This document shows positions 1,592 to 44,117 of a DNA stretch of 45,140 nt, piece after piece. The position numbers and the translations under genes are program-made. The stretch's first letter is position 1. The number at the start of each line of letters is the position of its first letter. The stretch comes from a virus. Taxonomy: Duplodnaviria > Caudoviricetes. The stretch lies in the IMG/VR virus record IMGVR_UViG_3300032242_002100, positions 1 through 45,140 of that record. One strand, given 5' to 3'. Under the pieces are notes generated by a model. It was not told the origin of the DNA, ran no database searches, and worked only from the letters and a program-made list of their open reading frames with translations.

Positions 1592-1984
1592 TTAACCCAT
1601 CGTTTCCGGTTCAAGTTTGCGGCCCTTGGCAGCCGTGCCATGGCGTGCAGACGTAAATGGATTAACGTCAGAACCAGCGCGACCGCCCGACTTGCGAGGC
1701 TTGCGGCCAGCGTGGTGGTGAGCATGTTCACCGTGCATCGCAAGATGCTTGTGAGCAGCGCCACCGTGCTTACGCTTCGCACGACCACCGTGCTTGCGTT
1801 CGCCCATTTCTTCGGCTTCCGTTTCTGGATTGCCCTTGTTGTATTCCATAGGCTTGTCATGAAGATCCATTTCGGCTTCATTTACGCCTTTTTCTGGTGA
1901 CTCAGCCTTACCGCCGTGAGCATGGTGCTTGTGGTGCGCCTTACCCCCGTGGGCGTGGTGATGATGTGCCTTATGACCTTTCAT
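1592..1984 (-). CDS. His/Lys-rich low-complexity protein with five xxxGG repeats
   Basis: 130 aa; HAHGG x2, RKHGG x2, RKSGG; AGGAG SD. Confidence 0.75.
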   Translation of the reverse strand: MKGHKAHHHHAHGGKAHHKHHAHGGKAESPEKGVNEAEMDLHDKPMEYNKGNPETEAEEMGERKHGGRAKRKHGGAAHKHLAMHGEHAHHHAGRKPRKSGGRAGSDVNPFTSARHGTAAKGRKLEPETMG

Positions 1985-1996
1985 GGCCTAAGCTCC

Positions 1997-3274
1997 TTAA
2001 AAGTTCGTATACTGAGTATTGCCAAACAACCCAAGCACGGAGCTGATGTTGTAAGGCTGCGGGGATTGACGAACCACAAAACGCTTGCTGTTCGTTGTCG
2101 GGGCTTGGTTGACGCCGGAAGAACCGAAATCAATTGTGCCGCGAACGTCACCAGTCGTTGCAGTTGGATAAGTTTTATCCGCAGCAGTGAAACCAGTGGC
2201 GGCGGTGATCAAGGTCAAGGCGGTAAGCGAGTTACCAGCATTGACCAAAACTTCACCAAACGAGTCAGCACGAAGCGGGAGACCCAAAATCGTGCTTGTA
2301 CCAACAGAGTAAGAATAAGTCGTATCCGCCGAGCCGCCCGAAAGGACAACCGACTTAACGTACTTAAATGCCTTCTTACCCGTTACAGTGCTACCAGCCG
2401 TCAACGTGACCTGCTCAACCATTGGGTAGCCGTAAACATCATAACCCGAAGCCGTAGCTGTGGTGTATGTGCTTGAGGCATTTGAAGTCGTATAGGTCAA
2501 GCAGCGACCCATAATTGACTGCGGATTCCAAAGATTGATTGTGCCTGACTGACCCTGAGCAATACCGCCTGCAAGAATTGCGTTGGCTGTATTGTTCAAT
2601 GATGCAGTGATGGTGATTGGCGAGCCACTTGTACCAGCAGCAACGGCAGCACCGCTGACTGTGTAAGAACCAGTGAAACCAACACCAGGACCGCCGTTTG
2701 TCACGTTAACCGCAGGGCCGTAACCAGTGATTGTCGTGCCAGCCGCAATACCCGTTCCGCTGATGACCATCCCGATTGCCAACGGTGCATAAGATGCTGT
2801 TGAAACAATCAAGATATTACCAGCAGTACCCGACGTGCCGTTGGAAATATAACCAGACACCGAAGTGTATGTATCAATACCAACAAAACCAGACGTTCCA
2901 TTTGTATCAGCTACGCCAGTGTCCGCACGTGTAATCGACGTAATGATCGAAACACCCGTGGTCGTTGATGCAGAAGAAACAAGCGGCAACGTAAATGTTG
3001 CTGACGAAGAGCCGTTTGTCTGAGCGTTAACAATGGCAGTGGTTGATGCAGTGTAGGGAACTACGTTTAGGGTTGAAATATTATCAAAGCCCAAAAACGC
3101 ACCCGTAAATGCACCAAAGTTCTGTCCATTGAGGTATGTGTAGGGAGTACGGGGATCCAAGACCCCCGCGCCCGCATAAAAAGCCGATGTTCCCAGCTCT
3201 GGATTGTACTCATTTGGATTAAACGGCGACTGGCCGAATACCACTTGAGGACCGGAGAATGCTGTAATAGACAT
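1997..3274 (-). CDS. Virion structural / head decoration-like protein
   Basis: 425 aa, T/G/S-rich, directly downstream of the capsid gene; AGGAG SD; contains a GMVISGTGIAAGTTIT module. Confidence 0.7.
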   Translation of the reverse strand: MSITAFSGPQVVFGQSPFNPNEYNPELGTSAFYAGAGVLDPRTPYTYLNGQNFGAFTGAFLGFDNISTLNVVPYTASTTAIVNAQTNGSSSATFTLPLVSSASTTTGVSIITSITRADTGVADTNGTSGFVGIDTYTSVSGYISNGTSGTAGNILIVSTASYAPLAIGMVISGTGIAAGTTITGYGPAVNVTNGGPGVGFTGSYTVSGAAVAAGTSGSPITITASLNNTANAILAGGIAQGQSGTINLWNPQSIMGRCLTYTTSNASSTYTTATASGYDVYGYPMVEQVTLTAGSTVTGKKAFKYVKSVVLSGGSADTTYSYSVGTSTILGLPLRADSFGEVLVNAGNSLTALTLITAATGFTAADKTYPTATTGDVRGTIDFGSSGVNQAPTTNSKRFVVRQSPQPYNISSVLGLFGNTQYTNF

Positions 3275-3292
3275 GATGCAGTCTCCTTTGGA

Positions 3293-4207
3293 TTACGAAG
3301 TCGGGAACGAGCCGTAGATTGAACGCCAGTTGTAGTAACCGAACGAATAACGCTCATAGCCCTTTACAAGAAGGTTATCCGTTACAAAATCGACTTGCAT
3401 GTCGGTTTCGAACTTCACACGTTCCATGTAGGAAAGGCCATCAATGTTCGTAAGCAGGAACCACGGATACGCAGAGGTCAAAAAGTCGTTGACCATGTAG
3501 CCTTCCGACAAGCCGCCTGCCGTCGTAAGAATTGCGTTCGTATCATTATCCGCAGTGCCTGGACGCAATTCAGTCTTAAGAAGACGAATAGCAACTGGTT
3601 CAAGCTGCGGAGGAATGATCAACTTGCGCGCACGGGCGAAAACCTTAAGGCCAGCCTGATCTTTAAAGTTCGTGCGGACTGCGATCATCGCATTCAGCAA
3701 CGTAGCTTCGTTAAGGTCAACCTGAGTTGAAGGTGTATTTGCTACAGTACCGCCATCAATCGGATGGGCAGTGGAGCAAAGAGCAACACCATCACCGCCA
3801 ACGGCAGCGTTGTATGTCTGCGCGTTGTTAAGGATAGATGCACCGTAAATTTCCTTGGTCTGCTGGAATGCTTCGATCAGACCGAGGTTCGACGGATGGA
3901 ACTGCGTCTTGTAGATGTTATCGTCAATGGCTTTACGAGTAATCGCGTAGCCAAGGCCGATTTCAACGTGTTCCTGATTGTAGACATAACGCTCACCAGC
4001 GCCGTTATCGAATGCTGTCTGACCGCCTTCCGACTTCAACTGCGCGAGGCCGAGGAAGCGAAGTTCAGCGGTACGTTCGAGAGCAAGTTTCGAATCGTGC
4101 TTAGTGAAGATTTTGTCGTACTGAGATGGGATCATCTCATACTTGCCTTCAATGCCACGGAGACCGGGCAGGAGAAGGTCTTTAATTGCTGAGAGATTAA
4201 CAGCCAT
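3293..4207 (-). CDS. Major capsid protein (Mu gpT-like family)
   Basis: 304 aa; LLPGL...AITRKAIDDN...GGDGVALCSTAHP...KLIIPP...ERYSFGYYNWR is typical of this capsid family; position in the head cluster; AGGAG SD. Confidence 0.9.
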   Translation of the reverse strand: MAVNLSAIKDLLLPGLRGIEGKYEMIPSQYDKIFTKHDSKLALERTAELRFLGLAQLKSEGGQTAFDNGAGERYVYNQEHVEIGLGYAITRKAIDDNIYKTQFHPSNLGLIEAFQQTKEIYGASILNNAQTYNAAVGGDGVALCSTAHPIDGGTVANTPSTQVDLNEATLLNAMIAVRTNFKDQAGLKVFARARKLIIPPQLEPVAIRLLKTELRPGTADNDTNAILTTAGGLSEGYMVNDFLTSAYPWFLLTNIDGLSYMERVKFETDMQVDFVTDNLLVKGYERYSFGYYNWRSIYGSFPTS

Positions 4208-4220
4208 AATACCTTACTCC

Positions 4221-5144: not shown

Positions 5145-5244
5145 AGCGGTATCTCCCATTCAAGGAAGTCTCCGTCACAGCACACCGAGGCCATTAGGTG
5201 ACAAGAAAATAAAGTTAAGTTCCCGCACCGGGGGGAACACTTGC

Positions 5245-5293: not shown

Positions 5294-5299
5294 AATTTA

Positions 5300-6848: not shown

Positions 6849-7256
6849 TTACCAGACTTTGTCAGGGTTTTCGATGCGGCCACGGATAACCGTATCGTCA
6901 AGAAGACGGCACAAAATGTCAGAATTGTCCTTCAAATTGTTAATTGTAATGCCCCAACCGTCAGACGGGCGGAACACAACCCAATCACCGACGTCAACAT
7001 TGATGCCATCAAACCATTGTTTTGAGTCATCAACAAACGCCGAATTGCCTTTCTTCAAGACAAGACCAACTTTGCCCTGCCATTTGTCCTCGTCACGTGT
7101 TTTTCCGCTAATGATCACGCCACCGGCGGTCATTTCTGGGCGGATGTAAATTGCAACGAGAAGTTGATTGTGGAAGATTTCGATTTCGGAAAGATCACCA
7201 ACGCTTGATAAAATTTCCTGCCGCGGATCTGCGGCATGTTTCATAATGTAAGCCAT
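6849..7256 (-). CDS. groES: Co-chaperonin GroES-like
   Basis: TAGGVII mobile loop, GLVLKKG, VDVGDWVVF, LLDD. Confidence 0.85.
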   Translation of the reverse strand: MAYIMKHAADPRQEILSSVGDLSEIEIFHNQLLVAIYIRPEMTAGGVIISGKTRDEDKWQGKVGLVLKKGNSAFVDDSKQWFDGINVDVGDWVVFRPSDGWGITINNLKDNSDILCRLLDDTVIRGRIENPDKVW

Positions 7257-7566: not shown

Positions 7567-8979
7567 TTATTTACCGCCGTAAATCTCAATTTTCTCAAGA
7601 CGGCCTTTGCCACCGCCAGCACCCGCATCCATGTCGTTGATGGTGCGATAAACCTTACCACCTGACTTGCGTGCCATTGCCATCTGCGGCATTGGAGGAC
7701 GTGCGCCCATAGGACCGCCTGCACCCATAGGAGGCATACCGCCAGGAGGCATCATGCCGCCCATTGGAGCGCCGCCCGAAGGCATCATGCCTGCTGGTGG
7801 CATTGGCGGAGGAACCGGAACGCCCTGCGGAGGACGTGGCGGCATCTGTGGCTGCTGTGGGTTGCCCATAGCGCCCGCCGGATGCTGTGCAATGACAATA
7901 TTGACGTTTGTCTTGCCCTTTGCACGACCGCCAGCCTTACGAGCAATGCGACCGCCTGTTGGACGGACGCCCGTTTCTTCCATGATGTTGCCGCCATGAG
8001 CGCGATGCTTGATGGCTTCCGGCTTGATCATCTTCTTGATCAGCTTCTTATCTTCGGCTTCATCAGGATGTTCCGCCTTGCCGCCATGCGCGTGGTGCAT
8101 ACCCTTAAGCGTCTTAGCTAAGTTGGCTTTTCTGGCGAGATTTGGATTGTCGCTATGTGATGCTTTCTCCAACTTCTTCGCCGGAATCTTTTCGCCCGCC
8201 GGAACGTGCAATGCTTTATGGAGAGAGCCCGGATGTTTGATGGCCTTCTGAATCCACTTTTCAGCTTTGCCTCCATGCTTGCGCGGCATTGCGTTAACCA
8301 AATCATCCACCGAACGATACGACTGAGGAGCATTGCGCACCAAGTCATCCGTTGACTGATACTGACGGCGCGGAGGAAGCGGGATATTGCCACTCTTATC
8401 CGCAAATTGGATTTCGGCAGGAGTAATTGGTTTGCCAGTCTGTGTGTTGATGAATTTGTTAATGGCGTCCTTGCCAACAACATTGCCATCAAGACCTGCG
8501 TGGTGTTCGCGCTTGGCTTTACCGCCATGCTTGCGGCCCATAGGCATTGCGGCACGTGCGTTCTGCAACATGTCCTGCGAAACTACGTTCGGTCCAATAG
8601 GACCGCCGCCCATTTTCTTGACCTTGCCGCCCTTCTTCATGCCACCAATATGCTTGTCGCCATCGCGGTATTCATTTGCCTTCTTGAGATCACGATTGAT
8701 CAAACGATCAACCGGAGGCATTGCGCTTCCGCCATCTTTGCGAGGTTTACGGTCTGCGCGAGGCGGGTTCTTATGGCCCTCTGCCTTCTTCAAAACTTTA
8801 CCGCCACGCTTAAACTGACGCTTTGAGACTGGGCGCATACCCGTCTTTACGTCTGCATCAAGTGCGTCTGGCGGGGTGTAACCGCTGGCATCAATCGGCG
8901 TGCCACGAGGGTCGGCGCGAACCAACCTCTCCACTTTGCTCTTCGCGGCCTTTCGGGCCGACTTGGAGGCTTCTGACAT
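7567..8979 (-). CDS. Basic low-complexity protein with about 10 xxxGG repeats and a Pro/Met-rich tract
   Basis: 470 aa; AGGAG SD; located in the head cluster. Confidence 0.8.
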   Translation of the reverse strand: MSEASKSARKAAKSKVERLVRADPRGTPIDASGYTPPDALDADVKTGMRPVSKRQFKRGGKVLKKAEGHKNPPRADRKPRKDGGSAMPPVDRLINRDLKKANEYRDGDKHIGGMKKGGKVKKMGGGPIGPNVVSQDMLQNARAAMPMGRKHGGKAKREHHAGLDGNVVGKDAINKFINTQTGKPITPAEIQFADKSGNIPLPPRRQYQSTDDLVRNAPQSYRSVDDLVNAMPRKHGGKAEKWIQKAIKHPGSLHKALHVPAGEKIPAKKLEKASHSDNPNLARKANLAKTLKGMHHAHGGKAEHPDEAEDKKLIKKMIKPEAIKHRAHGGNIMEETGVRPTGGRIARKAGGRAKGKTNVNIVIAQHPAGAMGNPQQPQMPPRPPQGVPVPPPMPPAGMMPSGGAPMGGMMPPGGMPPMGAGGPMGARPPMPQMAMARKSGGKVYRTINDMDAGAGGGKGRLEKIEIYGGK

Positions 8980-8994: not shown

Positions 8995-11900
8995 TTAAGA
9001 CCGGCGTCCCGGTAGCTGCTGTCGGGCAACATGGATGGCGTCGTGCAGCGGCGAACCATATCCAGATAATACATTAAGTGCGTGATCAACAACAGACCCG
9101 CCGCTTGCTTTTAGTTGGGTTGTATATGTTGATGTCACGCCAGTATTTGGGTTTGTCCAAGTAAATGTCGGTTGACCAGCAGAGTGCGCGGCGGCGAATG
9201 CTGCGCTGAAATTTGACGATGATAGATTGTTATAAGCCTCAACTGGAGACCCAGCACCAACGGCTGAAGGTGCAGACGTTCCAAAATCCTGACGGCCAAT
9301 AGACGCAGATGGGCCAGCGTTTAAATAAGCGTCAGAAGTTTGGCCTGGGTGGGCAAGAGGCGTGGCGTTAGTAGATCCGTAATCCCTCATCATTTGCGCT
9401 GGCGTAGCAAAGTCAGACGGAATACCAGCATTGATATTCGCAAGGGATTTGTTCATTCCAGCCATAGAAATGTCGGAATACGGGTCTCCTTGGTTTGGTG
9501 CTTGAACGCCAGTAAAGGCTCTGCCAATAGCAGGAAACAACCCCTGACCTTGAGACAAGTTTGCCACTTGCTGCATTGATTGCGCGTTTGGAACTTGCGA
9601 AAGAAGGTTTGATACGTAATTTAACCCTTGGCTTCCGCCAATATTTAACGGGCCTTTAGTTTCTGAACCTTGCGGTAATGGCTCACCGTAACCGCCACCG
9701 CCACCAAATTGGCTTGTCGGTTCGCCTATCTGACCGCCAGTTCCGCCCCAAGTTCCTGTATTAAAGCCAGGCGTATCACCTGCTCTTGCTGAGACTGAAT
9801 TGAACCTATCTCCTCCGTCATGACTGCCAAAGCTTGGTTGGTCATTTGAACTTTCTTCGTTGCCGCCGTAATTTGATTCAGACGAGTTGCCTTGATCACC
9901 GCCTCCGCCGTAACTATTACCGCTTGCCGAACCCGTTGATCCAGCCTCCGGCCCTTCGCCTTCGCCGCCAAAACCGAAATGCGGACGATCTTGTGCCCTA
10001 CCACCAGCAGCATGTGGGCCAAGCATAGCACGACGCTTCATCAATATTTGCCTTGCAGATTCTTTTGCCTGAGCAACTTTATCAGCATTTTTATTTATAA
10101 AATCAGATCCGCCACTTTGCTGTTCGCTGATATCGTTTGGATTTATTCCCTGACGTTTTAATTCATAGTTTTCAATTGGCCCAAATTGTTTGAGCATCAT
10201 GCTACGGACAAACTTTTCTTGGTCATCCGTTGCCCCAGCCTCGTCAGAAGAAGATTTGAAAATATCGCTTATAGACTGCCGCTTTTTGTCAGCCTCTTGA
10301 AATGCTTTATTATCGCCACTTGCAATGGCACTTTCCATTTCCTGATGTGCTTTATTGAGTTGATCATTAAGGATTTCCTTCAATTCATAATGAAACGGCT
10401 CATGAACCATGACTGATGGATATTTCGGGTCAACATACATTTTATCTGCTGGCGGGAATGTCTGACCCAGCACATTGTACGTAGACTGACTTGATAACAA
10501 ATCAAATTTGTCTGGTTGATAGCCCAATGCCGAAATAGGGTTTTTCTGTGCTGCCATGTACGCAGCATACAAAGCGTCAGATTCATTTGGCGTAAGAGGA
10601 CGCCTTATACCGCCTTGACGCTGTGCAATATCTTCCGGTTTTTCATAAATATTTCCCCGTGCGCCAGCTTGCAAATATCCGGCTTCCGGTGCGCCATAAG
10701 TTGCATCAACTGACCTGTAAAAATCTACATCAGCTTTGTTGGGGAACTTGCCTTCTGGCGGGTTATAGCTTTGCAATCCTTCTTTTGCCTTGTACGTCCC
10801 GCCTTCGTTTGGTCCTTGAATGTCGTAATAATAATCTGGAACATGAGACTTTGGCATAAGATCAGGCGGAGTTGCGGGGATTGCAACCTTTTGGCCTTCA
10901 ACTGTTGGCGCCGCAGGTATCATTGTTGGAGTGCTATGAACGTAATTTTTGCCGATATACTGGTCAGGTCCAGTACCCTCGTTGCCAAAATAGCTTCTGT
11001 CAGACGGTATTTTTTTGGTTACATTGACATCAAGCGGGGATACTGGCTGCTGGGCGTTACCATCAAGATTAATTGATCCTAACGCAGGCTGTGGTGCGGC
11101 AACTTGTGGCTGTTCCTTTGGCGTCATACCTTTCGTCCACGCCATTTTTGGCTCTGTTGACATGATATCTTTATAAACCTGCGGGAAGTCCCACGGCGTT
11201 TTTGGCGGCAATTGAACGTCGGGCGAAATGGCTACGGGCTTTGCTTCTTGAGCCGCAAGCTTTGCACGCATAGCTAACCGAGACGGTGCTTTTGTCTGTG
11301 CAACTTCCAACGCTTTATCAACAATGTCGGGCTGCGGATGACCGCTTTCCATCCATTGCTTGTCAGCAACTTCTCGCGCCAAGTTCCATGCACGCTCTGA
11401 ATCTTCTTTTGATCCAAAAGTTCCGTCAGGCATTGCATGAGTGCGGCCAGCAGGCGGATTATAGTCTGTTCCATTGCCCGCAATGTGATACGGATCAAGA
11501 TTTGGCCCTTTAGCTAACGGCGTGCTTTCTGGCTCCGGCGCTTGCGGGTTCATGTACTGCTCGTACAAGTGAAGTAATTGATCACGAACCTTCGGCGATT
11601 CCTGTGACGCTTGCTCGGCCATGTTGCTCAAACCACTAACGGCTTTGCTGCCAATGTCCTGCGCACCGCTGTATAACTGGCTGCCAACGTCAGACGCTTT
11701 GTTCTTTAGGTAATCAATGTTCTCTTCAGGAGACGGCAAGCTTTCAGCAAACTTCTGGATATTTTCCTTGTCAAACAAACCAGCAAGCGACGACAGCCAA
11801 GACGACTCGTCCTGCACGCCGCCACCTGCGGCGCGGGCAACCCGAAGGGCGTCGGTGACGAGGCCGCCGTGTTCTTTGGTTATGTCAGAAGTTGACGGGT

Positions 11901-12945
11901 CAAATGTGCCTTGGTTGCCAGTTGCGGATTTGATTTGGTGCGGATGAAAGGCAACAATTTGTTTAATTGGCGTTAAACCATCTGGGCTATCCATGAATGT
12001 CGAGGGAAGAACTATTCCATCATATCCAGATTTAATTAAATGATCGCGCAAAGCATTATAATTAACTTTATCATCAACCATTCTGGCCTGCCGACCAACT
12101 ATTTTATAATCTGGACGAGAAAATGTCGTATATGCGTCAACCAAATCTTTAATGCTATTGTAATTGTCCGCAATCAATGGATTTTTTATACTTAAATGCA
12201 CTGGCTGAACATTTGCCCCTTTACCGCGAGCAGCAAAATTAGCAAAATCAGACGCAGATTCTGGATTATCCGTGAACCAATGGCCTATTGGACTTTCACG
12301 AGATCCTGCCCCTTTGTTTGTTATTTCGTAATTTGAAAAATCAGATCCTGTCCCATGATATGTAACAGATGGAATTTCAGGATGATTACCTTCTTGAAAC
12401 TTTGCCAAATTTTCTTCACGCGCTGGGTCGCCATAAGGAATGAATGATTTATTTCCTTCAACATTTTGCGCAGTATTAAATTTTTTTTCTGTCTCAGAAG
12501 AAGGGCGAATACTACGCAATGCTTCATCCCAAAAATTAACTAAACCAGAATTTCCTTCTGATTTATGATAATCAATAGCTTGTTGAATATGGCTTCTAAC
12601 GGCATCTATATTGCCATTTTTTTCATTCCAAATATCTTGAACACGCGCTGCGATTAAAGGATTACCGCCTTGAATAGGCGCACCACCAGCTTGCGGCGGC
12701 GTCAATTGTTGCGCACCCGTAGCAAATTGCGGGACGTTGGCTTCAAGGTCCATACCCCGCAATGCTTGCGTCGGCATAGACAGTTTCTGCGTAATTATGT
12801 CACCGCCCAAATCCGTATGAGCTTGCGCTGACTGGCCCAAGTCAGTGTTATCATCAACACCGCCCTGCGTGGCATAACCGCCACGGGCAAAATGCTTCGC
12901 CACCAGTAATGCTGCTCTTACGGCCTTGTGCGGATCTTGGGTCAT
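8995..12945 (-). CDS. Polyvalent protein: ART-PolyVal-like ADP-ribosyltransferase domain plus HExxH zincin-like domain
   Basis: YHGT...GHWFTD...PVHLSIKNP...GYDGI...VAFHPHQIKSATGNQGTF; VMVHEPFH; ATGA overlap with the portal gene. Confidence 0.75.
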   Translation of the reverse strand: MTQDPHKAVRAALLVAKHFARGGYATQGGVDDNTDLGQSAQAHTDLGGDIITQKLSMPTQALRGMDLEANVPQFATGAQQLTPPQAGGAPIQGGNPLIAARVQDIWNEKNGNIDAVRSHIQQAIDYHKSEGNSGLVNFWDEALRSIRPSSETEKKFNTAQNVEGNKSFIPYGDPAREENLAKFQEGNHPEIPSVTYHGTGSDFSNYEITNKGAGSRESPIGHWFTDNPESASDFANFAARGKGANVQPVHLSIKNPLIADNYNSIKDLVDAYTTFSRPDYKIVGRQARMVDDKVNYNALRDHLIKSGYDGIVLPSTFMDSPDGLTPIKQIVAFHPHQIKSATGNQGTFDPSTSDITKEHGGLVTDALRVARAAGGGVQDESSWLSSLAGLFDKENIQKFAESLPSPEENIDYLKNKASDVGSQLYSGAQDIGSKAVSGLSNMAEQASQESPKVRDQLLHLYEQYMNPQAPEPESTPLAKGPNLDPYHIAGNGTDYNPPAGRTHAMPDGTFGSKEDSERAWNLAREVADKQWMESGHPQPDIVDKALEVAQTKAPSRLAMRAKLAAQEAKPVAISPDVQLPPKTPWDFPQVYKDIMSTEPKMAWTKGMTPKEQPQVAAPQPALGSINLDGNAQQPVSPLDVNVTKKIPSDRSYFGNEGTGPDQYIGKNYVHSTPTMIPAAPTVEGQKVAIPATPPDLMPKSHVPDYYYDIQGPNEGGTYKAKEGLQSYNPPEGKFPNKADVDFYRSVDATYGAPEAGYLQAGARGNIYEKPEDIAQRQGGIRRPLTPNESDALYAAYMAAQKNPISALGYQPDKFDLLSSQSTYNVLGQTFPPADKMYVDPKYPSVMVHEPFHYELKEILNDQLNKAHQEMESAIASGDNKAFQEADKKRQSISDIFKSSSDEAGATDDQEKFVRSMMLKQFGPIENYELKRQGINPNDISEQQSGGSDFINKNADKVAQAKESARQILMKRRAMLGPHAAGGRAQDRPHFGFGGEGEGPEAGSTGSASGNSYGGGGDQGNSSESNYGGNEESSNDQPSFGSHDGGDRFNSVSARAGDTPGFNTGTWGGTGGQIGEPTSQFGGGGGYGEPLPQGSETKGPLNIGGSQGLNYVSNLLSQVPNAQSMQQVANLSQGQGLFPAIGRAFTGVQAPNQGDPYSDISMAGMNKSLANINAGIPSDFATPAQMMRDYGSTNATPLAHPGQTSDAYLNAGPSASIGRQDFGTSAPSAVGAGSPVEAYNNLSSSNFSAAFAAAHSAGQPTFTWTNPNTGVTSTYTTQLKASGGSVVDHALNVLSGYGSPLHDAIHVARQQLPGRRS

Positions 12946-27938: not shown

Positions 27939-28238
27939 ATGAAACTATTGAATGAAAGAGAAAAGACACATGGGCCATACAGCGAGGTAGCCAAAATGTC
28001 CCAGAAACTGAAAGCCATATTGCGTCGTGGCAAGAAGTGGGACGACTTGAGTGACGCGCAAAAAGAATCCCTTGAAATGATTGCGTCGAAAATCGCACGT
28101 GCATTGTCAGGGGAACCAAATGAGCCGGATCATTGGATTGATATTTCCGGTTATTCACAACTTATTGTTAACGAATTAGAGGATAATACAGATGTTGGAT
28201 CAAGCACAAACACAGAATCAGACACAGAATGGGCATGA
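27939..28238 (+). CDS. DUF6378-like protein
   Basis: LNEREKTHG...KIARALSG...DHWIDISGY. Confidence 0.75.
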   Translation: MKLLNEREKTHGPYSEVAKMSQKLKAILRRGKKWDDLSDAQKESLEMIASKIARALSGEPNEPDHWIDISGYSQLIVNELEDNTDVGSSTNTESDTEWA

Positions 28239-29013
28239 CGAGATTGATTACAAAGCACGTAATCAAGAAATTAAAAGATTACATCAGTCAGGAGTTTCGG
28301 AAGAGGAACTTGTTGCCAAGTTTGGCATCAGCCCAGCCCGCGTGTGGCAAATTGTGACGGACTGGAAAAGCCCATCAAGCCAAAGAAGGAAAGCATTGAA
28401 TAAAAAGATTGAAGATATGGAGTTTTCAGTCAGAACAAAAAATGCTCTTTTGAATAACAATATTAAAAAGATTTCGGATCTTCTTCCATGGACCGAGCGT
28501 GATCTTCTTCGCATGCCAAACTTTGGTCGCAAAAGCCTGAACGAAATGAAAGAAGTTTTGGAATACATGGGTATTCAGCTTAAAGTTAAAGAAGATAATG
28601 GAAACATTGGCTACGACATTACGCGCAATGCGATAGATAAATATTTGTCCCCCCGCGCCAGTGTATTATTCAATAAAAAGTATGTTATTGGCCCCAATGA
28701 ACGTGCGTCAAATAGCCCTCAAATTACTGGTTCCGTTAAAACTCGATATGAAGATGGGCTAACAAATGACGGAACCATAGTGAAGGCGGATCAGGAAGAC
28801 ATTGCCATCAATACGCACGTTCACGCTCTTCTTGTGAAGGAAAATGAGCGTTTGAAGAAGAATATTGGCACAATGCGCGACGTTTTGAAGGAAGTGAACG
28901 CCCGCCAGCAGGAAGACAGCGACAAGCTGATTGAGTTGCTGGAACACATCAAGGCCAACAGCATTAAGCGCAATGATCGGTTGGTAGAGATCCTGAAGCA
29001 ATATCAGTATTGA
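28192..29013 (+). CDS. HTH plus RNA polymerase alpha-CTD plus coiled-coil protein
   Basis: RNQEI...FGISPARVWQIV HTH; IEDMEFSVRTKNAL...PNFGRKSLNEMKEVL alpha-CTD; GAGG SD. Confidence 0.85.
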   Translation: MLDQAQTQNQTQNGHDEIDYKARNQEIKRLHQSGVSEEELVAKFGISPARVWQIVTDWKSPSSQRRKALNKKIEDMEFSVRTKNALLNNNIKKISDLLPWTERDLLRMPNFGRKSLNEMKEVLEYMGIQLKVKEDNGNIGYDITRNAIDKYLSPRASVLFNKKYVIGPNERASNSPQITGSVKTRYEDGLTNDGTIVKADQEDIAINTHVHALLVKENERLKKNIGTMRDVLKEVNARQQEDSDKLIELLEHIKANSIKRNDRLVEILKQYQY

Positions 29014-32852: not shown

Positions 32853-33048
32853 TCCGCCACTGCCACTTGAGACGCCGAAGGGCAAAGCAATGGCACACTT
32901 CATTATTGATTACGGGATTGAACACCATTTGATGTTCGTTTGTTTTCAAGACGAAACAGGCGAATGCTGGACGTGGCAAAACCCCGAAATCAGGATACAA
33001 AAAAACGCGACGGTCGGTCGCGTCTCTTTATCTATTATCGGAACATGA
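32839..33048 (+). CDS. Hypothetical phage protein
   Basis: IDPPLPLETPKG...IDYG...GECW; 3' part of ORF 32728-33048. Confidence 0.65.
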   Translation: MTRIDPPLPLETPKGKAMAHFIIDYGIEHHLMFVCFQDETGECWTWQNPEIRIQKNATVGRVSLSIIGT

Positions 33049-36342: not shown

Positions 36343-38769
36343 TTAGATCGCGGCTTGAGCGACATCAAGCGCCTTAACAATGTGGTCATCCGGCACATCA
36401 AGCAATGGCTCGGTCGTCTTATTGACTTGCTTCTTGGCCGTTTCCGCCGCCGTCACAAGCCGTTCGGCCTCGTCCTCTGGTGTTATAGCACGACCGCCCG
36501 TCGCCCTGCCAATCCTGCCGCCTGAAGCTTCATTGGGGACTTCTTCTTGCGGTTTCTGGCCTTGCTTGGCTCCGTATGCGGCAGCCATACCCATTTCCGT
36601 GCGACGGATAATGTTTCGAATGTTCTGCGACGATTGGCTGGCATTTAAAATGCGCTCAAAGTCTGCCGGATTACTTGATGCAATAAGTTGCGCAATGCGC
36701 GGGGCAAGAGTTTGGTCAACGCCGTGGTTGTATTTCAAAATAGCACCAGTCAAAACAGTACCGCCCAAGCCAAGTGCGCTCAGAACAGGGTGCTTCATAA
36801 TTTCATCACGGTTTTCCCACGCCGCTTTTCCGGCTTCAATGCCGCCAAACATTTCAGCCGCAAGCAACTGTGCCGCCGTTGACGAATTACCGCCCACGGC
36901 AGTCTTCAACATGTTCATCATGCTTTCGCGGCGGATGTATGCCTCAAGTGCGGCAGCCTGATCTTCACCAAGACCCATTGCAAGTTTTTGACGAGAAGAT
37001 GGGCTGTTAAACATACGCGCAACATTGCTGCTGTCGTTCATGTTTGATGCGCGATTAATGATGTCGCTTGACATGCCCATGCCGAAAAGTTTCTGGTCAG
37101 CAGAAGACATTTTCTTAAACGCATTCATTGCGTCATCAGTATTGTATGCGTTCATGTTGCGAAGGAAGTTTGTTCCCGCCTCATGAGCATCTTGCGCACC
37201 AAAGAACTTTGCAGCTCCTGCACGTGCCTGATTGTATTCAGGGACAGCCGTATCAAGTTTTTCGCGCAATGTATCTCGAACGTCTTTATAGGCATTGCCA
37301 AGCTTATTTGCTTGATTGCTGTAAGCTGCATTAACCTTGTCATCCAAGGACTGTTTTACATAATCCCAGAACTGAAGATTTGGCGTCGCTGTAGATCCAT
37401 CAGGATTTACCTTTAATGTCCAATTTCCATTGGCATCTTTAATAAAAGGATTCTCAACAGTCGGATGGCCAGCAGCAGCAGAAATGTTTTTTCCTAAGTT
37501 GACGGCATCTTCAATTGAGTTTTGAACAACTGGCGCTTGCATAAGCTGGGAGAAGTCATTGTCCCACATAGATTGTGCCGCAGGCTGAGAATACGCTTTA
37601 CTGTAAGCATCTTTGTTTTCAACGCGAGACATGCGTGTCAAAGCGTCTCTTACGTCTGCCGCACCAGTTCCGTCACTTACACCAATTGCATTCCGCATAT
37701 AGTCAGCAAGGCGAGAACCCTGTATTTGAAAGCGTGATTCAAGTGGGGTTTCCAAATATGCGCCAGCTTCTGGCGAAAGGTTCTTAACCGTCCTTGCCAA
37801 CATGCGTGTTTGAGCGCCACCAATATCACCGACAACCCAAGGCTGTCCTGCTTGCTGTGCCGCCTGAATGTCTTCTGCGCTCATGCCAAGTGCTGGACTT
37901 TTCGGTGAAACGCCTTGAAGTTTTGCTTTTGCAGCGGCATCTGCTTCCATTGCAGCACGAACACGCTGAGCCGCTTGGTCGCCTGTTTTGGCGCCCGTAA
38001 ACTTTTCAAGTCCCGCGCCAATCAGTCTCCCACCCACAGGGATACCTGCGACAAGCGGGATTTTGACTGGTCCGATACTTGGCCCTGCGGTGACTGCCTC
38101 TTTTGCGGAAGCGAGGGCATTTTTAATTCTGTCTTCTGTTGTATCGCCCTGCTCAATCCCTGTGGCTGCGCCGTAACCTGCGGCAAGAGCGCCACCACCT
38201 GCAATGTCTCCTGCAAGGCCAGCCGCGCGGCTAAGCGTTCCTGGTCCTGCAAAGCGTTCGACGGCTCGAGCAACCATTGGTCCGACTTTTTCGGCACCGA
38301 ACGAAGGCAGAAGCGGAACGGTGCCAATAGCACCCACAGCGGAAGCAACAGGATGCCGATAAGTTTCGACCTGCCTTGCGGCCTCCTGCTTGGCGCGAAG
38401 GTCATTGTACCGCTCAGAGTAGGTAGCTCCCTCTCCCTGCCCTGCTGCGGCTCCTGCGGCGGCTGTTGCGGCATTGACACCCCATGAACCGAGAGGGATG
38501 TTTTCTGCGGGATTTGCGGCCATGAAGCTTTTGAGATACGGGGCTGCTGCGCCTGCCCAACCGAATTGTTGCCCTTCATCAGTTGCAGCACGTTTGATAT
38601 ATCCCTCTTGTTTGACCTGACCCTGTAGGCCGCTGATATGCGCCTGCAATTGTTCATCCGACATCCCCGACAAATCTGTCGCAGAAGATGACGGCGCCTG
38701 ACGAGTCTGAATAAATTTATTCAAATCTTCGTCAGACATTGCTGAAAAGTCAGGTGTAATATCAGCCAT
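36343..38769 (-). CDS. Internal virion / DNA-ejection protein
   Basis: 808 aa, Ala-rich and helical; two SxMSDExL repeats at the N-terminus; EASGG and RATGG near the C-terminus. Confidence 0.7.
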   Translation of the reverse strand: MADITPDFSAMSDEDLNKFIQTRQAPSSSATDLSGMSDEQLQAHISGLQGQVKQEGYIKRAATDEGQQFGWAGAAAPYLKSFMAANPAENIPLGSWGVNAATAAAGAAAGQGEGATYSERYNDLRAKQEAARQVETYRHPVASAVGAIGTVPLLPSFGAEKVGPMVARAVERFAGPGTLSRAAGLAGDIAGGGALAAGYGAATGIEQGDTTEDRIKNALASAKEAVTAGPSIGPVKIPLVAGIPVGGRLIGAGLEKFTGAKTGDQAAQRVRAAMEADAAAKAKLQGVSPKSPALGMSAEDIQAAQQAGQPWVVGDIGGAQTRMLARTVKNLSPEAGAYLETPLESRFQIQGSRLADYMRNAIGVSDGTGAADVRDALTRMSRVENKDAYSKAYSQPAAQSMWDNDFSQLMQAPVVQNSIEDAVNLGKNISAAAGHPTVENPFIKDANGNWTLKVNPDGSTATPNLQFWDYVKQSLDDKVNAAYSNQANKLGNAYKDVRDTLREKLDTAVPEYNQARAGAAKFFGAQDAHEAGTNFLRNMNAYNTDDAMNAFKKMSSADQKLFGMGMSSDIINRASNMNDSSNVARMFNSPSSRQKLAMGLGEDQAAALEAYIRRESMMNMLKTAVGGNSSTAAQLLAAEMFGGIEAGKAAWENRDEIMKHPVLSALGLGGTVLTGAILKYNHGVDQTLAPRIAQLIASSNPADFERILNASQSSQNIRNIIRRTEMGMAAAYGAKQGQKPQEEVPNEASGGRIGRATGGRAITPEDEAERLVTAAETAKKQVNKTTEPLLDVPDDHIVKALDVAQAAI

Positions 38770-41700
38770 TATGGTGCAACCTGCTGTTGTGATGACTTAC
38801 GACGCGCTTGCTCCGCAAGGGCTTTTTTCAACATTTCGTCTTTAGTTAACGTCGGCGCTGTAGGTGTAGGAGTAGAAGGTGAACCAGATGCCGCAGTATA
38901 CCACGGATTATCGCGGTGATATTCGTAGTAAGCCTTCTCAATATTGTCTTTCGCTGGATCCATATCTGCAATTTTTTCATATGATCCCATTTGAGCTTTT
39001 GCTTTTGGCTGGATAATATTTTCATTAATCCATTGGAAAGCTTGTGGAAGCATTGAAACGCCAGGCGTGCTTTGCAAGAAGCGATTAAATTCGTTTACGC
39101 GAACAGGAGAACCTGCAAGTTCCTGTCGAGCAATTTCGCTACCCATGGCTGTGCGAAGCTTATCAAGAGCCTGTGCGTCGGCAGGGTTTGTCCCCGTCCA
39201 CTGCTTGATGAAGTTATCACTGAACCCAGCTTGTTTAAAGAACGCCGAAGCACCAGCAAGAGTTTCTCCCAACGGACCGCCGCTGACCAAAGCTTCTTTG
39301 GTTTTTGGATCAAACATGACGCCCATCATGGCACGCGACTGGTTCAATGCGTTTGTTGCATCAAGAGCTTCTTGTTCTGCTTTTGACTTAACGCCCGCTT
39401 GAATTTTGTATGCTTCCGGCGCAAGTGTTGTTGGCAATTCAGCTTGCTTTGTTACTGCTGACAAAGATGCCGATGCCAATTTATCTCGCATATCTTTCCA
39501 TTGCGTCAATGCAACTTGTTGGTTTTGTTTTGCCTGTGTAGCAAAATTTAGATAATCCTTATCTTTTCCAGATGCGATCATTGCTGGGTCTTTTGCCATT
39601 TGCAGATATTTTTGTGCATCAGAACCATACTCATCAGCGATTGAACGCTGTTTAATAACTTCAGGATCTTTATCAACTTCAGAGTAAATGGCCTGCGTTT
39701 GTGCAACTTGAGGATTGGTAACGGAAGGTTTTACTTCAGGCTGTACTGCCGCAACTTTCTCAGGGGAAACAGTTTTTGCAACATCAACCGCAGGCTGCGC
39801 TTGAGGCAAACCAGAAGGCGTATATGTTGGCTTGTAATTAGCGCCCTGCATTGCGCCGCCAAGATATTGCGACATGCCCGGCATTTGGGCCAAGCGAGAT
39901 TGTCTTTCAGCAAGCGGTATTGTGTCGCCCTGAACAGTATCAAAATACATTCCGTTGCCAATTGGCGTAAACCGCTGTGCCGCAAGGCCAAGTGTATCTT
40001 TCGCAATCTGTGCGTTCTGAATCTTTTGCGCCTGTACTGCTTCAGCGTAGCCACCGAGCCCCTGTAGTGCTGCGGCCCCGAAATAACGGCTTGGGGAGCC
40101 TGCCATTCTGCCAAGGCCGATAAGGATCGGGAGCAACGTGCTTTCGTTTGTCAGGCCGCTGAACAAGCCACCAGATGATGGTTGCGCACTACCCTGCTGA
40201 CCACTTGGCGCAATGCCACCAGCACGATTGTAGGCTGCCTGAACAAGATCAGAAGGAACTTGGCCGCCATGCGTTGTCTGACCAAAGTCAGGTCCAACAT
40301 CAACGCCACCCTTTGTTGTCAATTCTGGCGCAAGACCACCAAACGCACCCTTGCCATACTGGACGTGAGGCATGTCTGGATTGCTGAAATCAGCGCCCAT
40401 TGTCAGGCCGGTTTTTGCCGCGGCTTCGCGCAAGGCAGGCAAATTCTTTTCGCCAATTCCGCTGAAATCTGTCGCAAGCCCATACTGATGACCGCTTGAA
40501 TAAGGCTCTGCGGCAGGAAAGTTTGGCTCATTTGCGTGTGTCAGTTTAATCGCTGCTTGTTCTTCAGGCGAACGTGTTTCGCTGACAGGAGAAAGGCCGA
40601 TGCCCTTCTTTGCCGCCATTTCCGCAAACTGACGAAAGCGTGGCGCAACTGCTGGGTTCAACCCTTGAGAGTAAACGTCAGGCGTGTCCGTCGCAGTTTG
40701 TGCGACGTCAGAAGACGACAGAAGCCCTGCAAGAATGTCAGATGGATCTCGCTGTGTCGGGTCATAACCTACGGCCCTGCCATCAGCATGATGCTCACGG
40801 ACTACGCCGCCTTCATTAAAGAACCCAAGGAACATTTTTCCAAGGCTCAATGCTGTGCCAAGCCCTCCAAGACCACTGTCGCTTGATCCGCTTGATGGTG
40901 GGCGCATACCTTTTTGCTCGGCAAGAAGATCAGCAGGCGTTTTTTCGGATTCCGAAACAACTTGCGCCAATGGATTATTGGAGTCGTATGGGAGAACTGT
41001 TCCGCCAGATGCGAACCCAAGTAACGACAAAATGTCTTTGCTGCTTGATGCGTCTGACGCAGCCGCCTTCGCCCAATCAGTGCCCTGCTGAAGTGGACCC
41101 ATTGATGCGGGCGCTTTTGTCGGCGGGTTAACAAGATCAGACGCCGCTCCGGCGAGTCCTTTGCCTTCCTGATATATGCCCTTAAGGTCTTTGTAGTCCT
41201 TTACAGCATTTTCAATTGAACCAAGGCCAGACTGCTGTTGTTGAGGCGGCTGCGCAACGCCAAGATGCGCGACAGGCAAATTAGCCGCAGGGACAATACC
41301 TTTACCGCCTGGCAACCCACCGGGCTTGCCGCCGTAAATGCCGCTCTCAGCAAATGGTGCGTACATTTGGTTTTGCGATTGCAAAATCATTGCCAAGTCT
41401 GTTGGGCTGATCAGACTGCCGCCATCATACTTGTGGATTCGACCGCCTTCGGCATACATGCCTTGGCCTTCAGAGCCGCCAACACCACTGTCTCCAGTGA
41501 CGTTGCCCATCATATTACCAAGATAACTTCCAAAACTTCCAACCGCGCCACTCAACCCACCGCCATATCCAGAATCTGGGCTATATCCATGATTTACGCC
41601 ATATGTTGGAGAAAACCCGCCGGATACTCCATCACGCCCTCCATTCCCAGAAATATTTTGACTATTTTTTTGTCTTTGGATGTCGTGATGATTATTTCCT

Positions 41701-42977
41701 ATTGGTGTTGTTGGCGTTGTCGGTGTTGAAGTATCGGCGAAATAATTAATGGGAGTTGTTTTTGCCCCTTCAGGAACTTCAAATACCGGAGCAAGTGATT
41801 GGGCTGAAGCCGCAGGGGAAATACCTCCAGCCATTTGCCTACCGATTTGAGATTGCAAGCCAGCCGTATCAATAGATGACGGCATACCGCCTACAGCGAA
41901 GCCCTGCATTGCGTGTTGCGGCAATACACCGCCGCCTTCAGATGCCGCCTTGTCGTAATCAACCATTTTAAAGCCTGATGGGTGAATACCAACGGCTTCT
42001 GGATGAATTTTTTCAACTTCGTCAGCCATGAAACCAATATGTTTCTGGCCTGCTGGGTCGCCCTTATACTCAAACTTATGGATCGGCAGACCTTCGTCCG
42101 TTTCACCAATACGCTCAATGTTTTTCTTAAGGCGGCGGTCAGAACCAAACCAAGATGTCGGCTGAGTGGCTGTCGTTGTTGAACCTGACAATGCGCCAGT
42201 GCCTTCCGCAATATTTGCGAGGAACTGAGCAACTTGGAACGGATAAGCCTGTTGCTGTTGGAACTGATTGTAAAGAGCCGCAAGACCGGCTTGCTGCGTC
42301 TGTTGCTCCAAAGTACCTGCACCAATTTGCGCTTGAGCGCCCTGCAAACCTGCCGCCTGCGCCCCTGCACCCAACTGACCAAGTTGTGCCCCAGCGCCCA
42401 ATAAACGGGCTTGGTTGGCCTGTTCTGCGGCAAGCTGTTGTCCCTGCTGCTGTTGAGCAACTGCTTGCGCCTGCGTGTAGCCTTGGTTCATCAAATTGGC
42501 GATGGTCTGGCTATTGGAAAGATTTTGCTGATACGCCAAATTGGCTTGCGCAATACCAGAACGGTCGCCTCCAAAAGCTCCAGCAGAAATTCCCTGACCC
42601 GCCAAAGCTGACTGCTGTTGAGCGTTCTGTTGCCCTTGAGCCGCCATTGTCGTGCCAAGAACAGTATTGAGGTATGGCGACAAATATTGCTGAGTATTAA
42701 GTTGGTTTGGGTTGACTGCGCCCGCCCCCGCCATCGTCATTTGGGCGCCAACGCCGTAGTAAGGTTGTGCTTCATTTGCGGCGGCGTTTACGCCACTAAT
42801 ACCCGCATACTGCTGCTGGTTAACAGGCGCAACAAAGGCGTTTGGGTCAGTTGAATATTTCTGGAACGGCGTCGCAGCAACTTTTTGCGCGTTTGCGTTG
42901 ACGGAATTATATCGTGCCAATACCTCTGGTGGGATTGATACTTGTGAAGTTGAGGTACTGGTTTTTCCGCCGCCCAT
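38769..42977 (-). CDS. Large ejection protein with an internal S74 autocleavage domain and an M15 peptidase
   Basis: MGGGK..Q/A-rich N-terminus; SDRRLK...GFMADEVE...VDY; RS...SGHQYGLATD...DMPHVQ. Confidence 0.8.
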   Translation of the reverse strand: MGGGKTSTSTSQVSIPPEVLARYNSVNANAQKVAATPFQKYSTDPNAFVAPVNQQQYAGISGVNAAANEAQPYYGVGAQMTMAGAGAVNPNQLNTQQYLSPYLNTVLGTTMAAQGQQNAQQQSALAGQGISAGAFGGDRSGIAQANLAYQQNLSNSQTIANLMNQGYTQAQAVAQQQQGQQLAAEQANQARLLGAGAQLGQLGAGAQAAGLQGAQAQIGAGTLEQQTQQAGLAALYNQFQQQQAYPFQVAQFLANIAEGTGALSGSTTTATQPTSWFGSDRRLKKNIERIGETDEGLPIHKFEYKGDPAGQKHIGFMADEVEKIHPEAVGIHPSGFKMVDYDKAASEGGGVLPQHAMQGFAVGGMPSSIDTAGLQSQIGRQMAGGISPAASAQSLAPVFEVPEGAKTTPINYFADTSTPTTPTTPIGNNHHDIQRQKNSQNISGNGGRDGVSGGFSPTYGVNHGYSPDSGYGGGLSGAVGSFGSYLGNMMGNVTGDSGVGGSEGQGMYAEGGRIHKYDGGSLISPTDLAMILQSQNQMYAPFAESGIYGGKPGGLPGGKGIVPAANLPVAHLGVAQPPQQQQSGLGSIENAVKDYKDLKGIYQEGKGLAGAASDLVNPPTKAPASMGPLQQGTDWAKAAASDASSSKDILSLLGFASGGTVLPYDSNNPLAQVVSESEKTPADLLAEQKGMRPPSSGSSDSGLGGLGTALSLGKMFLGFFNEGGVVREHHADGRAVGYDPTQRDPSDILAGLLSSSDVAQTATDTPDVYSQGLNPAVAPRFRQFAEMAAKKGIGLSPVSETRSPEEQAAIKLTHANEPNFPAAEPYSSGHQYGLATDFSGIGEKNLPALREAAAKTGLTMGADFSNPDMPHVQYGKGAFGGLAPELTTKGGVDVGPDFGQTTHGGQVPSDLVQAAYNRAGGIAPSGQQGSAQPSSGGLFSGLTNESTLLPILIGLGRMAGSPSRYFGAAALQGLGGYAEAVQAQKIQNAQIAKDTLGLAAQRFTPIGNGMYFDTVQGDTIPLAERQSRLAQMPGMSQYLGGAMQGANYKPTYTPSGLPQAQPAVDVAKTVSPEKVAAVQPEVKPSVTNPQVAQTQAIYSEVDKDPEVIKQRSIADEYGSDAQKYLQMAKDPAMIASGKDKDYLNFATQAKQNQQVALTQWKDMRDKLASASLSAVTKQAELPTTLAPEAYKIQAGVKSKAEQEALDATNALNQSRAMMGVMFDPKTKEALVSGGPLGETLAGASAFFKQAGFSDNFIKQWTGTNPADAQALDKLRTAMGSEIARQELAGSPVRVNEFNRFLQSTPGVSMLPQAFQWINENIIQPKAKAQMGSYEKIADMDPAKDNIEKAYYEYHRDNPWYTAASGSPSTPTPTAPTLTKDEMLKKALAEQARRKSSQQQVAP

Positions 42978-42978
42978 A

Positions 42979-43467
42979 TCAATGCTCCGTCACGGAATGG
43001 CCCGTGGTTGCCCCATACAAAAAGAACGCGCCACTTGGCTTGCCAAACTGCCGTTCATACAATTTGACTTTCGCCTCAGTGCGATTGTTTGACAAAACAC
43101 CGATAATCAGTGGAATGCCCAATGAATCAGCAACTTGCTTTGAGAAGTCACACAACCTACGTGCGCGACCGCCTTTGGCATTTCGAAAGTCAGGATGAAC
43201 GAAAATGGCCTTTTCTTCAAGAACGAGATCGTCAGAATACCACATTGATCCAATTCTCAAAAGTATCGCACCCTCGGCAATTCCACCTGATTTGCCAATA
43301 ATTCCAATTAAACCATGATCTCGGTTTACGGCAGGCCAAATTTCGGCCAAAAGCTTTGTGGGGTTCGGGTTTACAAAACCATTTTCCTCGCACCCCATGA
43401 GCGCAAGGTTCATGATGTCATCAAGATCGCTTGGTGTCGCAATACGTATTTTAAGATCGTCTTTCAT
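42979..43467 (-). CDS. GNAT-fold acyltransferase-like virion-cluster protein
   Basis: IRIATPSD, FVHPDFR, LYER motifs; precedes the ejection genes. Confidence 0.75.
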   Translation of the reverse strand: MKDDLKIRIATPSDLDDIMNLALMGCEENGFVNPNPTKLLAEIWPAVNRDHGLIGIIGKSGGIAEGAILLRIGSMWYSDDLVLEEKAIFVHPDFRNAKGGRARRLCDFSKQVADSLGIPLIIGVLSNNRTEAKVKLYERQFGKPSGAFFLYGATTGHSVTEH

Positions 43468-43475
43468 ATTTCCCT

Positions 43476-44117
43476 CTAATCTTTTTTCGGACCAGGTAAT
43501 TTCTGCAAAGTCTTAATCGTTTTGGCCCGCATTTTTTTAACGAAAGCATCAAGGATTCGATGCCCTCGGTCTAAATCACCGCCGCCGATATGTAATACGT
43601 CTTGGGGGTGAATAACGTACTCGCCGCCAGCGGCGACAATTGGAACTGTATTAACTTCTCCGCCTGTAGCGCGGCCTTGAATGTCTGACCCATATGGGCC
43701 TGATGATGACTGACCGTACATGCCACCCTTCTGGCCGTAAGGCGTACCGCCAAATATACGACGAGCGGACTTGAAGCCCGCCATTGTATTGCCTTCGCCC
43801 ATGGCCGAGATAATGTCAGCCGGAATAACGTAGGAGCCTGAATGGACGTGCATTGGCAAATGGTCAGTGCGGCCAGCCACAGGGCTGTGAATTGGGCCAC
43901 TGAAAGGTTTTGGCGTCTTTGGAGCCTTTGGCATCTTTACGCCAGTACTCTTCGCCATAAAACTTGGCATGTGTCCGCCAAAAGCTTTGTGGGGCTTGGC
44001 TTCACGTGCCGTAGACAATGCAGCCGCAATTGCTTGATCTTTTGGATGACCAGCATGGATCATCTCGGCAATATTGCCGCTAATTGTTTTTTGAGATGAC
44101 CCGTGCTTCAATGGCAT
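43476..44117 (-). CDS. Conserved protein with two G-[SE]-YVI half-repeats and xxxGG motifs
   Basis: MPLKHGSS..ISGNI..QAIAAAL N-terminal module; GRTDHLP..SGSYVIPADII and AGGEYVIHPQDV. Confidence 0.7.
   Translation of the reverse strand: MPLKHGSSQKTISGNIAEMIHAGHPKDQAIAAALSTAREAKPHKAFGGHMPSFMAKSTGVKMPKAPKTPKPFSGPIHSPVAGRTDHLPMHVHSGSYVIPADIISAMGEGNTMAGFKSARRIFGGTPYGQKGGMYGQSSSGPYGSDIQGRATGGEVNTVPIVAAGGEYVIHPQDVLHIGGGDLDRGHRILDAFVKKMRAKTIKTLQKLPGPKKD

Follow-up and report, generated by a model that had tools for sequence, protein, structure and literature searches.

A short Ala/Lys-x-Gly-Gly tag in head and ejection proteins of a short-tailed phage: a probable maturation cut site and a candidate cutter

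We analysed the 45,140-nucleotide IMG/VR virus record IMGVR_UViG_3300032242_002100 (hereafter the window, meaning that whole stretch of DNA), in which a five-residue peptide with the strict pattern [FYMRHK]-[AK]-x-G-G, hereafter the tag, recurs in six proteins. The tag is real, is limited to these protein classes, avoids folded domains, and coincides with a mapped cut in phage T5 and with the start of a resolved density in phage crAss001. The tag is probably a maturation cut site. With a little more reserve we favour the reading that junction tags are cut just before their Ala or Lys, splitting precursors packed in the virion, and that the product of 43476-44117 is the most likely candidate cutter. 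That a repeated module of this product is itself the catalyst is a tentative proposal, somewhat less than evenly probable. The window is a single virus record, 79% complete and not a whole genome, and judging by Pfam and PHROG matches it is that of a short-tailed phage, with portal, terminase, capsid, GroES, probable scaffold, GNAT and ejection genes.

The strict pattern was drawn from the window itself in the initial annotation, which had counted about 25 copies by eye. The same pattern gives 28 matches in the 36 annotated proteins, compared with 4.6 expected from composition shuffles (maximum 13 in 2000), and 25 of the 28, with the quoted peptides, lie in the six named proteins:

1592..1984, minus strand: 130-residue basic protein rich in His, Lys and Arg; 5 strict tags, at residues 10, 21, 63, 71 and 97
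7567..8979, minus strand: 470-residue basic low-complexity protein, encoded between the cargo gene and the GroES gene; 10 strict and 2 loose tags
8995..12945, minus strand: 1316-residue polyvalent cargo protein, after the portal gene; 4 strict tags, at residues 19, 371, 978 and 1279, and loose tags at 357 and 990
36343..38769, minus strand: 808-residue probable second ejection protein (phrog_5880, E 5e-46); 1 strict tag at residue 755 and a loose one at 747, before a conserved trailer
38769..42977, minus strand: 1402-residue ejection protein (phrog_4287, phrog_6121); 3 strict tags, at residues 360, 508 and 655, and loose tags at 345, 516 and 720
43476..44117, minus strand: 213-residue candidate cutter or reader; N-terminal helical hairpin, tag (residue 44), module 1, tag (residue 149), module 2; 2 strict tags

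These six would be virion-associated, as had been supposed, judging from PHROG and Pfam matches and gene order, and in the case of 1592-1984 and 7567-8979 from position alone; searches of Pfam, PHROG and NCBIfam with the 1592-1984 protein gave no match. When V, I, A or L was also required two residues after the Gly-Gly pair, 22 tags remained compared with 1.2 expected, all 22 of them in the six proteins, and shuffling within 30-residue windows gave the same picture as whole-protein composition shuffles. Taken alone, the proteins of 36343 (1 tag, p about 0.1-0.27) and 43476 (p about 0.02-0.05) are weak cases; the tags of both are conserved among relatives. The remaining three matches are probably due to chance: MAAGG in the portal and FATGG in 4221, already set aside as such, and KASGG at residue 82 of the primase-polymerase of 22408-24510. 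The last means that the reported absence of tags from capsid protein, large terminase and replication enzymes holds in the window for the first two and fails for the replication enzymes. A useful negative control is provided by the 544-residue protein of 33035-34669 (minus strand), which has no strict tag despite 87 Gly-Gly pairs; this protein lies among the tail genes, is 34% glycine and consists of two similar halves.

As an independent test of the pattern, we scanned the open reading frames of 160 related loci fetched with the portal or the 43476 protein, and found 476 strict tags where 45 would be expected, limited to relatives of the same protein classes; since these loci come from related phages, the counts overstate independence. 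In other classes, tags were found in 0/64 portals, 0/52 GNATs, 0/13 scaffolds and 0/5 capsid proteins of these loci, and in one of 46 large terminases. All 28 relatives of the 7567 protein carry tags (135 compared with 4.0 expected). The fuller consensus is R-x-x-[RFYM]-[AK]-x-G-G-x-[VAI], with R, F and Y before the Ala or Lys enriched five- to six-fold, and Arg three residues further upstream enriched five-fold. Moreover, the codons of both Gly residues show synonymous variation, with 13 codon pairs among 345 tags, and thus constraint acts on the peptide.

The positions of tags relative to folded domains were determined by a Pfam scan of 60 large tagged proteins (56 of the 88 non-redundant ones and four from the complete relative MW202675), of which 17 were dropped, 16 for want of any domain and one because a signal peptide was its sole match; a duplicate domain that overlapped another was omitted too. 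In the remaining 43 proteins, with 52 domains, none of the 106 strict tags lies inside a domain (11.0 expected) and 26 lie within 30 residues of a domain edge (7.6 expected), while a looser pattern places 3 of 149 inside. The claim that motifs fall at module boundaries of the large proteins was thus borne out, down to the quoted KEHGG that follows the ADP-ribosyltransferase (ART) domain. In relatives, identical modules recur with different neighbours, joined at tags. The parts of the window proteins concerned, with one adjoining gene, are as follows:

8092..8280, minus strand: cassette in the 7567 protein (residues 234-296) between two flanking tags; weak fusellovirus VP2-like match (PF25632, E 2.4e-4), below the cut-off
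11902..12372, minus strand: ART-PolyVal ADP-ribosyltransferase domain (residues 192-348; PF18760, E 1.4e-22), followed by KEHGG at 357 and RAAGG at 371
36346..36504, minus strand: 53-residue C-terminal trailer of the 36343 protein, starting at the Ala of the tag and ending in an xxALxVA helix
42979..43467, minus strand: GNAT-like acetyltransferase (phrog_1249), between the module gene and the ejection genes; no tag

Only the window copy of the VP2-like cassette was found, and it is absent from all relatives fetched; a supposed kinship with residues 370-428 of crAss001 gp45 was dropped, no alignment being obtained. In one related locus (L007, 8821-10289) a frameshift or an assembly error divides the 7567-like gene into two overlapping frames; in L008 and L009 it is whole. 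The phage GroES co-chaperonin gene (6849-7256, minus strand) is kept in relatives between the 7567-like gene and the probable scaffold gene, and GroES is also found in phages Pag-Yong1 and crAss001. The 38769-42977 protein has, in order, an ejection domain, an S74 chaperone (residues 279-329; PF13884, E 4e-10) and a VanY/M15-like peptidase (residues 773-845; PF02557, E 1.3e-4, below the cut-off). The S74 self-cleaving chaperone, usually a tail-fibre feature, here sits inside an ejection protein; several relatives have two copies and some have other domains instead.

Cuts mapped or proposed in cultured phages allow the tag to be compared with processing. In the T5 tape measure protein pb2, a cut after R1127 was mapped by mass spectrometry (PMC10038345), and it falls in R|AEGG (1127-1131), three residues ahead of the first Gly. 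Of three A/K-x-GG starts in the 1219 residues of pb2, A1128 alone falls in the last 200. In phage lambda, the tape measure protein gpH has FATGG at 733, 120 residues (about 12.5 kDa) from its end, and its reported fragment is ∼14 kDa, the boundary and the catalyst being stated as unknown in the accessible part of a 2025 paper (PMC12617516). The peptide x-A-x-G-G is common to the six window proteins, T5 1127-1131 and lambda 733-737. A scan of lambda gpH loci returned 80 near-identical copies and was not used, and matches of designed Kelch proteins to lambda YATGG were discarded as chance. In the accessible text of other tape measure papers, the DT57C report finds no conserved motif among C-terminal fragments (PMC10713586), and no mapped tape measure cut was found in the Douge and F-pyocin papers.

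In crAss001, the cargo protein gp45 is seen as a portal-bound density (residues 425-552), present in 12 copies on the portal wing, and a tail-barrel density (residues 214-245) (PMC10172136). A425 is the Ala of N|AFGG and one of nine A/K-x-GG starts in 842 residues; the next tag follows the portal-bound piece at 559, and two others flank the tail-barrel piece. Because the T5 cut and the crAss001 density start both fall on Ala, the bond is likely the one before the Ala or Lys of the tag and not one after Gly-Gly. We also re-matched 13 published band peak lists from matrix-assisted laser desorption/ionization spectra (PMC6235969, supplement 8) to 27 crAss001 proteins, after excluding peaks of trypsin autolysis and a few of low quality. 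Portal, gp47, gp49, gp50 and others were found, and gp45 was above chance in none of the 13 bands. Inspection of the same lists by eye gave no semi-tryptic tag-edge masses (1929.83, 2119.97, 2258.08), and the tag-spanning peptide (2985.44) was likewise absent; as gp45 was identified in no band, these absences speak neither for nor against cutting.

A second signal accompanies the tag. The helix [VIAL]-x-x-A-L-x-x-[ATVI], written xxALxxA below, occurs 33 times compared with 2.0 expected in 30 complete cargo proteins and 13 times compared with 2.5 in 14 second ejection proteins, and these enrichments are inflated, as the pattern was drawn from the same sequences. It is rarer than expected in 24 first ejection proteins (1 compared with 5.6), and in 470 tag-free structural proteins a narrower form is not enriched (15 compared with 13.9). 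The helix lies mostly in short leaders and trailers set off by a tag, among them both ends of the 8995-12945 protein, and a similar helix is found in the 43476 hairpin. Single tags isolate short terminal pieces in 14/14 second ejection proteins, with the last tag at most 80 residues from the end in every complete relative, and in 21/30 cargo proteins; in trailers of the 36343 type, Gly-Gly is invariant in 17/17. The 36343 trailer is predicted to be a removable anchor. More generally, the helix of such terminal pieces may be a packaging anchor, it seems a better candidate for the packaging signal than the tag, and the pattern suggests a two-part code, with a helix for packaging and a tag for release.

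The best candidate for the cutter is the 43476-44117 protein, with these parts:

43998..44117, minus strand: N-terminal helix-turn-helix (phrog_2423)
43749..43904, minus strand: module copy 1 (residues 72-123); Asp85 conserved, Ser/Ala in place of Glu
43518..43673, minus strand: module copy 2 (residues 149-200), beginning with its own tag RATGG, with conserved Glu166

The two-module part matches 2702 clusters at 50% identity. In copy 1, parsed in 136 of 150 representatives at 50% identity, Asp is kept in 135/136 and Ser or Ala replaces Glu in 134/136; in copy 2, Glu is kept in 114/114 parsed representatives, and A150, G152, G153 and E166 are invariant in 70/70 relatives. The corresponding element of the phage JBD30 tape measure has both acids in one copy, and the two copies of the 43476 protein may split one acid site between them. 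Its phrog_2423 hairpin, which recurs in Acinetobacter and Burkholderia phage genes that bear the annotation head maturation protease, is a probable prohead-targeting piece. No module was found in large cargo proteins among 1718 open reading frames, and thus cargo tags need a partner in trans.

Homology of the module is significant for Pag-Yong1 UMO76003 (E 3e-11) and F116 gp58 (E 1e-4), and from these to the JBD30 tape measure it is marginal (E about 0.01). With tblastn, 8 of 36 weak-match records were annotated tape measures, and the match to structural proteins of cyanophages S-RIM12/Syn33 (17 of 36 records) was rejected as a Gly-rich chance match. A language-model search placed the crAss cargo domain as the nearest named family (0.85-0.86), which we take as a lead only; that domain, PF25725, had no match in the window by Pfam scan and six-frame search. 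Models of the 43476 protein reached a mean predicted local distance difference test (pLDDT) of 77, and the best fold matches had Z 5.8 (hairpin only) and 3.9; sequence searches of the PDB with the family gave chance matches only. A predicted complex of the module (residues 68-213) with the 36343 trailer scored 0.13 compared with a mark of 0.32, and is not evidence either way. No prohead protease is recognisable among the genes of the window, in agreement with the initial annotation, a statement that extends no further than a record 79% complete, and none is annotated in the complete relative MW202675.

Several observations weigh against cutting at the tag by this protein. One mapped cut is a sample of one, and a cut of any protein in this phage group is a prediction. 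The residue A425 of gp45 may simply be where a folded domain starts, the accessible text of the crAss001 paper treats gp45 as one continuous chain (PMC10172136), and the tag-free gp46 is likewise missing from the crAss001 bands, which weakens the absence of gp45 as support. The JBD30 authors propose, from a peptide-cutter prediction, a cut at R1066 (PMC11445458), which lies between the two tags of that tape measure (1019 and 1081) and not at a tag. Direct matches of the module to lambda (E 0.25-0.57) and JBD30 (E 1-2.8) are below significance, and homology is undetected in T5 and crAss001. The module has no protease family match in Pfam or NCBIfam, and PHROG hits the 44-residue hairpin only; fold searches with the 43476 protein gave no convincing solved match, the viral library returning unnamed relatives or the hairpin, and the module-only model has low confidence (pLDDT 60). 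The module stands at the end of proteins of 400 residues or more, with tags of their own, in 52 of 150 representatives, which fits a carrier equally. Finally, other Gly-Gly pairs also avoid domains (15 inside compared with 31 expected) and cluster at edges (41 compared with 24 expected); this weaker form of the same bias means that part of the domain-avoidance signal is generic linker glycine.

The alternative that fares best keeps the tag as a cut site and assigns the cutting to a host protease or to a phage gene absent from the incomplete record. It shares the cut-site step with the explanation we favour, so that the confidences overlap, and we regard it as unlikely. No catalytic fold was found in the module, and the title of a 1973 paper, seen in T5 reference lists, mentions host involvement in tail protein cleavage. 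Yet Escherichia coli, Bacteroides and probable alphaproteobacteria would all have to share one unusual specificity, the tag comes with a module-like stretch in T5, lambda, JBD30, crAss001, F116, Pag-Yong1 and MW202675, and the complete MW202675 has no annotated protease.

Slightly less likely still is an uncut docking peptide, by which the tag would bind the module, the portal or the scaffold and gather cargo into the prohead, with the 43476 protein as a portal-bound hub or carrier. The tag-started domain of gp45 does bind the portal wing in 12 copies (PMC10172136), no protease fold was found for the 43476 protein, its module is often fused to cargo, and many tag copies per protein would give avidity. 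Docking leaves unexplained the T5 cut exactly at the Ala of the tag, and the short terminal pieces set off by single tags in 14/14 second ejection and 21/30 cargo proteins.

It is improbable that nothing reads the tags and that they are flexible linkers, or recombination joints at the DNA level left over from duplicated module starts: the domain avoidance of other Gly-Gly pairs and the swapping of modules at tags would fit this, but the synonymous variation of Gly codons points to selection on the peptide, and the flanking positions (R, F, Y and the upstream Arg) and the trailer Gly-Gly are constrained. Systems such as ubiquitin/SUMO, adenain and bacteriocin leaders cut at or after Gly-Gly, and a signal of that kind, to which the initial annotation had likened the tag, is very improbable: the Gly-Gly pair is indeed the most conserved part, and the basic core-like substrates recall adenovirus core proteins, but the sole mapped cut precedes Ala, so that the likeness probably points to the wrong bond, and no ubiquitin-like fold, JAB, C39 or adenain-type family was found among the 36 window proteins scanned.

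For maturation cutting, which the clustering at domain edges, the T5 cut and the gp45 start support and which for the six proteins themselves is a prediction, the following sequence can be proposed. Precursors would be drawn into the prohead by short terminal pieces with the xxALxxA helix, and the 43476 protein would be held there by its own helical hairpin. Its two module copies would together form a composite acid site, each contributing one acid (an Asp and a Glu), and the protein would recognise residues after the scissile bond, predicted as x|A/K-x-G-G-x-V/A/I; recognition on that side would let the residue before the bond vary (R, F, Y, M, K, H). Cutting would remove the anchors, free the ART, peptidase and glycosidase domains, and reduce the 7567 and 1592 proteins to small basic peptides, those of 1592 being predicted as mostly basic. 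A similar module comes after the tag within one chain in tape measures and in crAss001 gp45, where it would work in cis; here it would act in trans. It is rather doubtful, though consistent with these likenesses, that tailed phages at large share an undescribed maturation protease, a ∼50-residue acid-pair module cutting x|A-x-G-G, in cis in siphophage tape measures, where it would be the cutter long looked for in lambda gpH and T5 pb2, and in crassvirus cargo, and here as a free-standing pseudo-dimeric enzyme dividing a set of anchored polyproteins in trans into injectable effectors, with cassettes between tags as deliverable cargo.

That proteins inside virions are cleaved at a short consensus during maturation is already known, as is polyvalent cargo (for which see PMC5512222). 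Polyvalent proteins, as described by Iyer et al. (2017), are large proteins, believed to be packaged and injected, among which ART-PolyVal, InPase, ParB, M15 and lysozyme domains are shuffled; the 8995-12945 protein fits that description by its ART-PolyVal domain, its gene after the portal and the varied domains of its relatives. For processing, in contrast, the accessible text of that paper puts forward zincin (MPTase) or assemblin domains, neither of which was found here, and it does not mention the tag (PMC5512222). In giant phages such as SPN3US, a short consensus likewise occurs on many internal proteins cut during head maturation, but a prohead protease is recognisable, whereas none is in the window and recognition would follow the cut bond. 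Giant-phage prohead proteases cut after a Glu-ending motif.

T5 pb2 and lambda gpH share x-A-x-G-G with the window, at the mapped cut in T5 and close to the expected one in lambda, and after it comes a short Gly-Glu element that looks like the one of the 43476 protein; they differ in having one or two tags and the element in the same tail protein, whereas here 25 tags lie in six proteins of the head and ejection module, with a separate two-module gene. The accessible text of the T5 and lambda papers names no motif (PMC10038345, PMC12617516). In crAss001 gp45 (C1, PF25725), a podophage cargo, several tags bound the resolved pieces, and the portal-bound domain is tag-started with a Gly-Glu element (PMC10172136); it differs in that gp45 alone has strict tags in the 100 of 103 kb scanned and that the authors assume an uncut chain. 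The link to crAss-like phage proteins, suggested in the initial annotation, thus holds for the sequence of gp45 and not for the literature: no paper was found naming the tag, or linking tape measure processing to podophage cargo, in a search outside which most subscription papers fell. The cultured F116 has the same Ser-then-Glu pair of copies in its uncharacterised gp58, fused to a longer protein. The cultured Pag-Yong1 has the same gene order, with tags in the neighbours of its uncharacterised UMO76003. The records of Planktothrix phage Pag-Yong1, MinM2 and Pra-JY27, each of 65,014 bases with an identical match and different stated cyanobacterial hosts, may be one phage.

In the distant podophage MW202545 (L250, 1787-3136 and 3941-4456), an 11-tag basic protein and a small tagged protein follow the capsid gene; the position of the former differs from that of 7567, and the module ends a Cys-rich protein. 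A supposed link to pelagiphage HTVC010P was rejected, as it has neither strict tags nor the module.

Other features of the window concern its completeness and host. Both ends (1-471 and 44120-45140, minus strand) encode separate paralogues of one virion protein family, which means that the record is not circular and lacks ∼10 kb, tail genes included; relatives have tail adaptor and tail stabilisation genes, and the window has neither. A GapR-like nucleoid protein encoded by the phage (17457-17792, minus strand; PF10073, E 7e-27), its gene lying upstream of those for the terminase, points to an alphaproteobacterial host. The product of 28192-29013 (plus strand), with a weak helix-turn-helix followed by an RNA polymerase alpha C-terminal domain (PF03118, E 8e-20), is possibly a transcription decoy or activator.

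If the proposed cutting is true, it predicts that lambda gpH is cut at F733|A734 in dependence on Glu755, and that the T5 pb2 cut at R1127|A1128 depends on Glu1143/Glu1147. The crAss001 structure would be reinterpreted, the two gp45 pieces 420 Å apart being separate fragments. Moreover, phages of this kind would possess a simple code for loading proteins into heads and releasing them, any gene cassette landing between two tags would become deliverable cargo, and this would explain the swapping of effector cassettes in widespread environmental podophages (2702 module clusters).

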